Source of the DNA: Escherichia phage phiEco32
Sequence record: NC_010324.1
Strand: one strand, 5' to 3'
DNA: 64,000 nt
Shown here: one piece after another, positions 44,062-49,368 of the stretch
Position numbering within the stretch: position 1 is the stretch's first letter
Layout of the letters: each line of letters opens with the position of its first letter
Translations under genes and position numbers: made by a program
Notes under the pieces: model-generated
Database searches by the model: none
What the model was told of the DNA's origin: nothing
What the model saw: the letters and a program-made list of their open reading frames with translations, nothing else

Positions 44062-44243
44062 TTACGCTCTCCAATTTCTTCGTAATGACACTCAGTAGTT
44101 AAGCAATCTTTACAGATTGCTGTATAAACCCTGACGTTAGTAAATCGTTTGTTCTTCCCTTTGGTTGGAGAGCCTTTAGCAAGCTCTCTGATAACCTTGT
44201 TACTTAAATGAAGGTTTGTTCCTTCACATCTAGAGCACTTCAT
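44058..44243 (-). CDS. small zinc-ribbon protein (61 aa)
   Basis: CSRC...CKDC pattern; ORF track. Confidence 0.45.
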   Translation of the reverse strand: MKCSRCEGTNLHLSNKVIRELAKGSPTKGKNKRFTNVRVYTAICKDCLTTECHYEEIGERK

Positions 44244-44559
44244 GGTTCATATCTTTATGAATCCTGTAAACAGCTGTCGCCATACAAGCAACAGCCTCAT
44301 TATGTGGGAGGTGCATTCCTGTAGAACCATCCCAATCTTTGAACTCAGCGTCAAAGACTCCGGTAGGCTCTGGATACAGAGCTTGCAGCTCCACTAGATC
44401 ATTAGCAACTTGTTGCCATTTATCATCAGACCAGATAGGGTCATCCAACCAGTAATACAAATAGGAATGGATGATCAATTGCCTTCTATGCCGATTGATT
44501 ACTTCAGCGGGACTTATCTCACTTCCATTTGAAGTCCTAAATGTATTACTGTCAATCAT
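44230..44559 (-). CDS. hypothetical protein (109 aa)
   Basis: ORF track. Confidence 0.45.
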   Translation of the reverse strand: MIDSNTFRTSNGSEISPAEVINRHRRQLIIHSYLYYWLDDPIWSDDKWQQVANDLVELQALYPEPTGVFDAEFKDWDGSTGMHLPHNEAVACMATAVYRIHKDMNHEVL

Positions 44560-46894: not shown

Positions 46895-47104
46895 TCAGTA
46901 GTAAATTACTTTAGACATAAAAGAACCAGTGTTAGGGTCTTCATACCAGCGATGTATGTCAGCGCTTTTTACTATTGTGCCCAGAGTCTTCAACTGTTTC
47001 TTAGCAATACGAGCCTCTTTGCGAGTGTCAAACAATTTGATGTTATCTTTTCTCATGTGTTGCTCAAGATTCCAAACAACATGAATAGCCCACATCTTTT
47101 TCAT
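46895..47104 (-). CDS. small basic protein, member 3 of a tandem three-paralog array
   Basis: 69 aa; shares R/K-rich pattern and C-terminal ...(K/S)(V/I)(I/H)YY with the two neighbours. Confidence 0.5.
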   Translation of the reverse strand: MKKMWAIHVVWNLEQHMRKDNIKLFDTRKEARIAKKQLKTLGTIVKSADIHRWYEDPNTGSFMSKVIYY

Positions 47105-47313
47105 TAGTAATGTACCTTTCCGCTAATATAAACACGACCAGAGGAATACTCTCTGGCCTTATGAATGCTGATGCTCTTGATCATATCCATATTAAACATA
47201 GATTTTTTAAAATCTCGAGCCTGTTGACGAGTGGGTAGTGCAGTCATAGTCATACCACCTGATGCCCACTTAATCTTCGCTAACCAGAACTGTCTCATGG
47301 TGATTGGTCTCAT
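47104..47313 (-). CDS. small basic protein, member 2 of the tandem array
   Basis: 69 aa; stop and start overlap with neighbours. Confidence 0.5.
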   Translation of the reverse strand: MRPITMRQFWLAKIKWASGGMTMTALPTRQQARDFKKSMFNMDMIKSISIHKAREYSSGRVYISGKVHY

Positions 47314-47510
47314 TAATAATAAATCTTACTGTTGGCAATAAAAGAACCTTCGCTATTCACCATAGCTCTTCCTAATGTAACCTTGTTAAGTCTAAAAGTA
47401 GATTTGTATTGATTTTTGACCCTACGTGCGTGCTCTCGAGTCTTAACAAAATCTACAGCTACTAACTCTCCAGTCGTGTTGTCATGTACACGAACAATCC
47501 ACTTTTTCAT
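47313..47510 (-). CDS. small basic protein, member 1 of the tandem array
   Basis: 65 aa; ...FIANSKIYY C-terminus. Confidence 0.5.
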   Translation of the reverse strand: MKKWIVRVHDNTTGELVAVDFVKTREHARRVKNQYKSTFRLNKVTLGRAMVNSEGSFIANSKIYY

Positions 47511-48044
47511 TTACACACCTTTAGATGCAACCACACCTTCAGAGTTATTATAACGACCCTTCACTGCATAGGAGTGTTCCCCTGCATGAGAGTGCTCAAA
47601 CATGACCATCTGACCAACACGCATACCAGCACGAACTCGTAAGCTATGGTGCTTGGTTACGTTGTGGAATTCAAATGTCAGCTTACTACTATTAAACCCT
47701 GCATCAGCCCATCCAGCGTGGAGATGGTTCAGACCACAACGAGCCATAGATGAACGAAGAACAAACAGACTTGAGATGTTATCTGGAAGGTTAAACTCCT
47801 CCATAGAGTGAGCCAAGAAGAACTGACCCGGAGTGATAACCAAACCCTCTTCAGGAATCTTTACTTCCTTCCACTGAAGATTCTCTTTCGCATCAATATC
47901 AACGATGCCATCAGCCTGTTCTTCAACAAGGATAGTATCACCAATACGGATATCCACACTAGCAGCGTTAACATACTTATGCTCCGCATCCAGATAGCCA
48001 TTGTCAATTACATTGTGCAGTTCAATACTTCCTAGTAAACCCAT
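47511..48044 (-). CDS. dCTP deaminase / dUTPase-superfamily protein
   Basis: ASVDIRIGD and VLRSSMARCG motifs typical of dCTP deaminase family. Confidence 0.65.
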   Translation of the reverse strand: MGLLGSIELHNVIDNGYLDAEHKYVNAASVDIRIGDTILVEEQADGIVDIDAKENLQWKEVKIPEEGLVITPGQFFLAHSMEEFNLPDNISSLFVLRSSMARCGLNHLHAGWADAGFNSSKLTFEFHNVTKHHSLRVRAGMRVGQMVMFEHSHAGEHSYAVKGRYNNSEGVVASKGV

Positions 48045-48053
48045 TCTTATTCC

Positions 48054-49367
48054 TTAGTTATTTTCGTCTATTTCAAAAGAGATTCCACGACCCGCTTCAT
48101 CGGCAAACCGAACTGTACGGGTTTGAGGTTCTAATACTTCAGGGTTGTTGGCAATAAAGCGATCAGCGAGATTATCTACCACATCTTGGGCCACACCTTC
48201 ATCAGTCCACACAGCCCTAACAGGTGCGTTGATATCACCAACAGCAAAACCCTGACCAGAGAACTGGTGACGGCTAACAGTCAAACCGTTTGGTCGACCA
48301 CGAGAAGGACTAGCCATCCATCGCTCCATAGAATCACTTGTAATACCCCAAGCTTCTTCAAAAGATGTTCTACGAGTAGGGCTTACTCTTCGTGACTCTT
48401 GTGCTCTACGCATTGCAGGGGCTACAAACACCCCTTCAATTGCATTATGTCGGTTAGGTTCCTCTTCTCGACCAAGCAGATCACCACCCGTGTTAGTTGT
48501 TAAATTTGTCAACCCTTCAGACCAATACGCATGAATCTGACCAGAACCGTGAAGACTAGACATAATCTGAATCTCTTCATAAGGGATTCCAAAGAATCGA
48601 CTCATGTCTCGGTCAACACAATACGAGGGACTTGTCGTATCCTCAGCATAAGTAACCTGACCCCGTTCATCAACCAGATGATTAATCGGTTGAGGTGTAG
48701 GGAGGTACCGAGAGTGGGCCATATATTGGAGCGCAGCGGATGTAGAGGAGAATCTCAACACCTGTGAATTAGGCCACTTCTTATGAACATACTTAATTTC
48801 ACGAGCAGAGACAACTACTGGACAAGGAGAAGTCATAGACAGATATCCATGAGGGGTCATAAATAGATTGTCAAGAGTCATCGCACCACGGCACATCATA
48901 GGAAAATTATCCATAACCTCTTCAATAGAAGTAGGATAATTAAACATGAATTGGATTCGAACCCCATTCCACTGAAATTCAATAATATCAGTGAATGTTA
49001 ACAAAGAGCCTTCAGCGTAGGCTTCATTTGTGGCTTCAGCCAGAAGGGAAGAGTACTCAATATCTTGAGACTCAAGCCACTCTTTCACGTTACTTTCAAC
49101 CTCTCGTCCGAGATCTTGCCACTGGTCATGGCGGATAAAGGTATCTCGAGTTCTTGGTGCCTGTCCTCTGACAATAAAGATATCAATGTCATGAGGTGCT
49201 CTATTATTAAGAACAGCATCACGAACAGCCCCACCAGTGATGATGGGACAAATACAGTCTGGAATCAAGTTGTTGTTAATCAACTGTTCAATGAAGTGAC
49301 GACCAACAGTGATATCAGGTTGTTGAGCAACCTTATCTTCAATTCGGTTAATCGGGATAACAATCAT
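48054..49367 (-). CDS. nucleotidyltransferase (pol-beta superfamily, CCA-adding / poly(A) polymerase-like head)
   Basis: IITGGAVRDAVLNN...PHDIDIFI matches the GGAVRD plus DxD head-domain signature; start at Met 20 of the track ORF, just after the exonuclease stop. Confidence 0.55.
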   Translation of the reverse strand: MIVIPINRIEDKVAQQPDITVGRHFIEQLINNNLIPDCICPIITGGAVRDAVLNNRAPHDIDIFIVRGQAPRTRDTFIRHDQWQDLGREVESNVKEWLESQDIEYSSLLAEATNEAYAEGSLLTFTDIIEFQWNGVRIQFMFNYPTSIEEVMDNFPMMCRGAMTLDNLFMTPHGYLSMTSPCPVVVSAREIKYVHKKWPNSQVLRFSSTSAALQYMAHSRYLPTPQPINHLVDERGQVTYAEDTTSPSYCVDRDMSRFFGIPYEEIQIMSSLHGSGQIHAYWSEGLTNLTTNTGGDLLGREEEPNRHNAIEGVFVAPAMRRAQESRRVSPTRRTSFEEAWGITSDSMERWMASPSRGRPNGLTVSRHQFSGQGFAVGDINAPVRAVWTDEGVAQDVVDNLADRFIANNPEVLEPQTRTVRFADEAGRGISFEIDENN

Positions 49368-49368
49368 T

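Follow-up and report, generated by a model that had tools for sequence, protein, structure and literature searches.

What does a phage nucleotidyltransferase act on when its catalytic signature is that of the CCA-adding enzymes and its neighbours are genes of DNA replication? This question is raised by a gene of Escherichia phage phiEco32 (NC_010324.1), which is considered here within a stretch of 64,000 nucleotides, referred to below as the window. The original prediction described the product as a nucleotidyltransferase resembling CCA-adding enzymes or poly(A) polymerases, with no tRNA genes seen nearby, and records of Kuravirus phages (phiEco32/SU10-like; Gordonclarkvirinae) already annotate the gene as "nucleotidyltransferase" (GenBank). 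The gene fits this known kind of enzyme by its motif A and its fold and has diverged elsewhere, and the label "CCA-adding enzyme" given to it in several GenBank records exceeds the sequence support, being unjustified beyond these two features. Comparison of sequences and of predicted structures points to a diverged polymerase-beta nucleotidyltransferase head of the class II type, and the function that we tentatively favour is that of an active, stand-alone enzyme of the replication module whose acceptor is something other than tRNA. The gene is placed as follows.

48054..49367, minus strand: nucleotidyltransferase (NTase) gene, PHROG 12715, 437 codons plus stop

The 437-amino acid (aa) open reading frame (ORF) with GGAVRD and then HDIDIF, which had drawn attention to this locus, was confirmed on the minus strand, with the two motifs at aa 45-50 and aa 59-64. 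As listed automatically, the ORF spans 48054..49424 and begins at a GTG at 49424, but the true start is the ATG at 49367, because this codon lies 1 nucleotide (nt) past the TAA of the upstream gene for an exonuclease subunit, because relatives share the MIVIP N-terminus, and because the following gene, for a dCTP deaminase, begins with an ATG 9 nt past the NTase stop. The gene is thus packed translationally into an operon and coupled at both ends. The protein matches the PHROG 12715 profile with E 1.5e-246 (aa 1-437 on profile positions 1-457), and orthologues are found in 68-96 Kuravirus-type genomes. In a preparation of phage SU10, 1 peptide of the NTase orthologue was detected by mass spectrometry, and the orthologue has been placed among the early gene products (PMC4281155). 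A scan for promoters and terminators between 46.5 and 53 kb returned counts equal to the shuffled expectation.

The residues that carry the enzymatic assignment are given below, where conservation is counted over 27 homologues with identity down to about 20%. Two further sets of phage proteins serve for comparison, namely the PHROG 1614 proteins, which are the nearest relatives outside the family, and Gad2, an anti-Gabija protein of phage SPbetaL7 that is itself a predicted NTase (10.1101/2023.05.01.538930).

49218..49235, minus strand: motif A part 1, G45-G46-A-V-R49-D50, with G45, G46, R49 and D50 invariant (27/27); aligns to GGAVRD of solved CCA enzymes
49182..49190, minus strand: motif A part 2, catalytic D60-I-D62, invariant (27/27); aligns to the DxD of class II enzymes, Gad2 and phiAS7 gp03
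48951..48953, minus strand: Q139, an invariant Gln (27/27) at the third catalytic carboxylate position; aligns to the Asp of PHROG 1614 proteins and to Q88 of Gad2
48900..48905, minus strand: F155-P156 in place of the R-D of motif B (RRD), from alignment to FD of PHROG 1614 and FDFT of Gad2
48771..48803, minus strand: signature helix R189-[DE]-x-x-Y193-x-x-[KR]-K197-x-P199, from conservation and the structural model

The residues invariant throughout the set are G45, G46, R49, D50, D60, D62, F64, Y117, I128, Q139, P156, Y193 and K197, and since the six catalytic positions of GGAVRD and HDIDIF are among them, this pair of motifs is not a chance occurrence. Conservation of the catalytic carboxylates, on which the original prediction had been staked, holds for the DxD pair, as opposed to the third carboxylate position, where every member has Gln. 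This residue aligns to an Asp in the PHROG 1614 strands VQVDVLM, CEVDVLF and VDVDLLF and to the invariant Q88 in Gad2, and it would be the equivalent of the class II Glu. Position 155, next to the invariant P156, is F in 19 members and M in 8. In the signature helix, which is modelled at residues 188-197 of the predicted structure, R189 is found in 22/27 homologues, D or E at position 190 in 27/27 and P199 in 24/27, and, judged from the sequence of E. coli Cca, the helix probably lies at about the spacing of motif D in class II enzymes.

The likeness to class II enzymes is concentrated in motif A and in the fold. GGxVRD is followed by DxD (D60-x-D62), the model has the head-domain fold of class II enzymes, and by structure it was matched best by bacterial poly(A) polymerase and CCA-adding enzymes. 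At the level of sequence, the alignment of the family profile with CCA-adding enzymes of solved structure is confined to about 26 residues of motif A (E 0.006), and the Pfam model of the PolyA_pol head (PF01743) scores 18.8 bits over aa 43-108, below its cutoff of 23, and matches 18 of the 27 family members, all below threshold. Motif B, (Dxx)RRD, whose RRD recognises ribose (PMC2910056), has no conserved RRD as its counterpart in the first 300 residues of the 27 members. Motif D, [EDG]DxxR, is likewise not conserved in their core, and it occurs only twice elsewhere, as isolated matches in 2 of the 27; selection experiments for CCA addition have shown that neither the D nor the R of EDxxR can be replaced (PMC11784652). 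No BxA-type motif was read after the catalytic strand of the NTase sequence, and helical body and tail domains for binding of tRNA or RNA were not found, the region being predicted as disordered. Compared with class II enzymes and bacterial poly(A) polymerase I, the protein differs by a helix-loop insertion of about 40 aa after DxD, by a 150-aa disordered tail where these enzymes have body and tail, by F-Pro as opposed to the RRD of motif B, by the absence of EDxxR and by Gln at the third carboxylate position. The class II identity that had been proposed therefore stands for the head, by motif A, the sub-threshold Pfam match and the fold. It does not stand in the family sense of a CCA-adding enzyme or poly(A) polymerase, because RRD is replaced by F/M-Pro, EDxxR is absent and the C-terminal third is disordered.

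The predicted structure divides the protein into two parts.

48513..49367, minus strand: folded catalytic unit, aa 1-285, with N-terminal helices, the class-II-like head and then a helical region
48057..48500, minus strand: disordered C-terminal tail, aa 290-437, with a predicted local distance difference test (pLDDT) score of 29-52

The roughly 330 residues that had been left unassigned beyond the motif can be revised accordingly, with aa 1-285 making up one folded unit and aa 290-437 predicted to be disordered. The tail is not alignable between genera and is missing from the short family members of 274-320 aa, and across the family the tails are neither consistently basic nor consistently acidic. 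The acidity of the core (isoelectric point, pI, of 4.5-5.4 in nearly all members and 7.0 in one) was considered as an argument against binding of nucleic acid and was rejected, because the head and neck of E. coli Cca are equally acidic (pI 5.1-5.3).

The family to which this protein belongs is small and isolated. An exhaustive phmmer search with aa 1-285 against 1.84 billion representatives gave 30 clusters, with all matches anchored at or near the target N-terminus and a conserved core of about 215 aa. In a profile search of 5.8 billion proteins, family members scored at least 238 bits and the next best, PolyA_pol proteins, at most 32 bits. The NCBIfam models, including cca and pcnB, gave no significant match for NTase, the PADLOC defence models gave no match, and a PDB sequence search with the single protein returned noise only.

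Within this family the gene is maintained by selection. In comparisons with Bas91, SU10 and one ENA contig, the ratio of non-synonymous to synonymous divergence (dN/dS) was 0.17-0.21 for the whole gene, 0.11-0.12 for aa 1-220 and 0.31-0.46 for the tail, values by which purifying selection acts on the gene throughout and the tail, though less constrained, is genuinely coding. The non-synonymous divergence of NTase (0.036-0.059) exceeds that of the flanking exonuclease gene by a factor of 5-10. It exceeds that of the deaminase by the same factor in the comparisons with Bas91 and SU10, and about twofold in that with the ENA contig. Synonymous divergence (dS) in the core, or N-terminal half, is about 0.5 against Bas91 and SU10, as opposed to 0.1-0.2 in the flanks, which points to mosaicism at NTase. 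Consistent with this, no phage in the database is more than 90.3% identical in DNA to the gene alone, while the surrounding 4 kb have 94% identity to CHD5UKE1, Bas91 and SU10, which are Kuravirus-type E. coli podophages. These values suggest recombinational mosaicism at NTase, the most diverged part of the locus.

The position of the gene, as opposed to its sequence, is stable. In the window, the genes for primase-helicase (DnaB_C), 3'-5' exonuclease subunit, NTase and dCTP deaminase follow one another in this order, and those for thioredoxin, a ferritin-like protein and ThyX lie farther downstream of the deaminase. The immediate neighbours are as follows.

49369..49926, minus strand: 3'-5' exonuclease subunit of a split family A DNA polymerase, upstream neighbour (PF01612, E 6e-9)
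47511..48044, minus strand: dCTP deaminase (DCD), downstream neighbour (PF22769, E 4e-34)

The order of exonuclease, NTase and DCD is kept in the window and in all six other contexts examined, which comprise Bas89 and SU7 (29-34% identity), metagenomic phages (23-30%) and the closest ENA contig, and the NTase gene is core and positionally fixed in the replication operon. The polymerase itself is encoded in two parts, the exonuclease subunit (PF01612, 49369-49926) and a polymerase subunit (PF00476, 39533-41377), both on the minus strand and about 8 kb apart.

A similar association is seen with the PHROG 1614 proteins, the nearest outside relatives of NTase by hmmscan (E 3e-7) and hhalign (E 3.6e-4). 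By structure, Foldseek related NTase to the proteins of Providencia PS3 and Aeromonas phiAS7 with E 1e-6. PHROG 1614 proteins were found by tblastn in 177 phage records, mostly of Autographiviridae, and in phiAS7, phi80-18 and a Drulisvirus the gene directly adjoins the family A DNA polymerase gene. Like NTase, these proteins (for example phiAS7 gp03, phi80-18 g27 and that of the Drulisvirus) have a phage-specific class-II-like head without body or tail and belong to the replication module. Unlike NTase, they are 180-255 aa long, have no disordered tail, are not encoded beside a dCTP deaminase, and retain both an FD..IN motif that resembles motif B and, at the third carboxylate position, an Asp. 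Since the PHROG 1614 genes also adjoin a DNA polymerase gene, there are two podophage lineages in which a head-only, class-II-like NTase is maintained next to the DNA polymerase.

From the fold, motif A, the selection on the gene and its position, we infer the kind of substrate that an active replication-module NTase would use, as a tentative working reading, though the likeliest of those considered here. A nucleoside triphosphate and Mg2+ would be bound through motif A, and the nucleotidyl group would be moved to a hydroxyl of a non-tRNA acceptor. The choice of nucleotide is probably altered relative to CCA enzymes, since neither RRD, which senses ribose, nor EDxxR, which templates the base, is retained, and this choice could include deoxynucleoside triphosphates. 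The acceptor would most likely be something made or used while the phage DNA is replicated, for example a replication protein or the 3' end of a primer or of DNA, because both the NTase family and its PHROG 1614 relatives adjoin family A DNA polymerase, and the variable disordered tail may serve as a tether to a partner. Several observations weigh on the other side. Adjacency is weak evidence of shared function, because the order of the podophage replication module is conserved anyway; the invariant Gln at the third carboxylate position could mean that the chemistry differs or that activity is reduced; the enzymes matched best by structure act on RNA and not on DNA; and the fast evolution of NTase fits a role in interaction with the host better than a housekeeping role in replication.

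Such a role in host interaction is what a second explanation proposes, in which NTase would be an anti-defence enzyme of the Gad2 type, making or modifying a nucleotide-containing molecule or a DNA end and thereby blinding a host nuclease such as Gabija or restriction enzymes. We regard this as possible and somewhat unlikely. Among precomputed Pfam assignments, a weak match to PF26128 (Gad2) is recorded for 29 of 44 close homologues and for one relative of 26% identity. By hhalign, the NTase family is related to Gad2 with a probability of 69% (E 4e-5), and to a 25-sequence Gad2 alignment with 62% (E 7.5e-5, 112 columns), as opposed to 12% (E 2.5e-3) for the same NTase profile against E. coli Cca. 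Like NTase, the Gad2 of SPbeta-like Bacillus phages has a GGA...DxD head, an N-terminal helix and, where PHROG 1614 has Asp, an invariant Gln on the catalytic strand, and both match PHROG 1614 weakly. The explanation also agrees with the fact that no other gene of the locus evolves as fast as NTase or is as mosaic, and with the reportedly unusual resistance of Gordonclarkvirinae to restriction-modification systems, for which there is no known cause (PMC11990801), though restriction sites are present in the window.

Gad2 nevertheless differs from NTase in having GGAIT as opposed to GGAVRD, in retaining FDFT and a QRILKF helix, and in its genomic setting, which is an anti-defence locus as opposed to a replication module. 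In a reciprocal Foldseek search of BFVD with the Gad2 model, the Kuravirus homologue A0A858HY55, which is in that database, was not among the top 50 matches; in Gad2 a beta-rich C-terminal domain is modelled with confidence at aa 250-400, as opposed to the disordered tail of NTase; and the NTase family profile search of 5.8e9 proteins recovered no Gad2 family protein at E <= 10. Membership of NTase in the Gad2 family was rejected, as reciprocal structure search, domain architecture and profile search were all unsupportive. In addition, the core and positionally fixed status of NTase is unlike that of typical accessory anti-defence genes, the PF26128 matches are precomputed and weak, and the mechanism of Gad2 itself was still unknown in 2026 (PMC12904381). 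We conclude that the NTase family, PHROG 1614 and Gad2 are diverged branches of phage head-type NTases.

As separate observations on Gad2 (SPbetaL7, 1064-2266), its Foldseek matches include RIIB, "lysis inhibitor" and DUF7666 proteins, and it gives a weak match (E 3e-4) to the PADLOC candidate-defence model PDC-S19. A precedent for a phage enzyme of the polymerase-beta superfamily whose nucleotide product serves immune evasion is provided by the MNT-like NTases of phages Bcp1 and Av05, which make competitor cyclic dinucleotides (10.1101/2022.06.09.495361). These enzymes form a clade apart from NTase, marked by a GS-x-AY..SDxD signature and a minimal NTase fold, and no sequence relation between them and NTase was detected.

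The third explanation stays closest to the original prediction and holds that NTase acts at RNA 3' ends, either by repairing the CCA of tRNA or by adding poly(A)-like tails to RNA of the host or of the phage. The structural matches to bacterial poly(A) polymerase and CCA-adding enzymes agree with it, as does GGAVRD...DxD, which is motif A of class II, and the phage lineage carries a tRNA. In line with what had been seen by eye, no tRNA lies near the gene, since ARAGORN found 0 genes and Rfam 0 families at gathering thresholds in the 64-kb window. The complete genome of SU10 has one tRNA-Arg(UCU), at 66656-66731, about 2 kb beyond the extent of the window, and it has been reported that all Kuravirus-like phages carry one tRNA-Arg(UCU) (PMC9965538). 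The SU10 gene encodes the 3' CCA, so that the phage is without evident need for a CCA-adding activity of its own, and the host has its own Cca. With motifs B and D missing from the core of all 27 members, no body or tail, no BxA-type motif, a similarity to class II enzymes of only about 26 residues, and an EDxxR whose D and R tolerate no substitution (PMC11784652), the explanation is an unlikely one.

A further proposal takes up both the restriction resistance and the adjacent deaminase. The authors of the BASEL paper speculate that the dCTP deaminase and the NTase together modify the phage DNA, "most simply" with deoxyuridine (dU) replacing T (PMC11990801). The adjacency of NTase and DCD in every context examined and the loss of the ribose-sensing RRD agree with such a covalent DNA-modification pathway, as does the reported resistance itself (PMC11990801), since loss of sites does not explain it: the window retains 12 EcoRI, 35 EcoRV, 9 EcoKI and 104 EcoP1 sites. 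Other sites are strongly avoided in the window, with CCWGG observed 3 times against about 104 expected and GATC 135 times against about 296. The 6-bp palindromes number 666 against about 950 expected, and 15 of them are absent, including the BamHI and PstI sites. This avoidance suggests that the DNA has been exposed to type II restriction, which speaks against the pathway. The phage also encodes ThyX and so has, with dCTP deaminase, an ordinary route to dTTP, a point against the replacement of T by dU, and we know of no DNA hypermodification pathway with a class II-type NTase. Furthermore, the termini of phiEco32 were mapped by restriction profiling and subcloning (PMC9965538), so its DNA can be cut and cloned. 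Taken with these points, a modification pathway is very doubtful.

It is extremely improbable that NTase is a catalytically inactive scaffold or adaptor keeping only the NTase fold, a notion to which the Gln in place of the third carboxylate, the loss of motifs B and D and a long disordered tail typical of adaptor proteins would lend themselves, but under which the invariance of G45, G46, R49, D50, D60 and D62 down to about 20% identity is hard to account for without binding of nucleotide and metal, and the invariant polar residues Q139, Y193 and K197 also suggest an active site.

Other genes of the window were noted in the course of the analysis. Just downstream of the dCTP deaminase lie three tandem paralogous ORFs (69, 69 and 65 aa; 46895-47510, minus strand), which have W5, a TR..AR..K motif and a C-terminal Tyr in common; genes of this kind number four in SU10. 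A 109-aa ORF (44230-44559, minus strand) bears the label "DNA ligase" in relatives and is too short for a complete ligase, and its counterpart in a close contig has a weak match to the Ia subdomain of NAD-ligase (PF22745). A cluster of predicted enzymes acting on peptide or amide bonds occupies 51930-59136 on the minus strand, and its product could also bear on the reported restriction resistance. Its members are as follows.

51930-52349, minus strand: GGACT gamma-glutamyl cyclotransferase
52856-54049, minus strand: protein annotated as ATP-grasp, with no Pfam match here
54493-56184, minus strand: glutamine amidotransferase
56603-57706, minus strand: Amidoligase_2
58330-59136, minus strand: phiEco32-type COOH-NH2 ligase

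A bolder proposal, which we consider quite unlikely, is that the NTase family and PHROG 1614 together form an unrecognised replisome-associated class. Its members would either extend phage DNA ends or replication intermediates by a nucleotide, which may be a deoxynucleotide, or make a nucleotide product, in both cases shielding replicating phage DNA from host nucleases and explaining the restriction resistance of Gordonclarkvirinae. Should NTase instead be a relaxed RNA-tailing enzyme, it would be an ordinary variant of its kind. The NTase gene is a core gene of a common and therapeutically used group of E. coli phages, and its remote resemblance to Gad2 means that solving either protein could inform the other. 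If NTase does act on DNA or make a protective nucleotide product, this would be a new anti-defence or replication activity, and it would give a function to hundreds of related small "nucleotidyltransferase" genes that stand beside DNA polymerases in T7-like phages.

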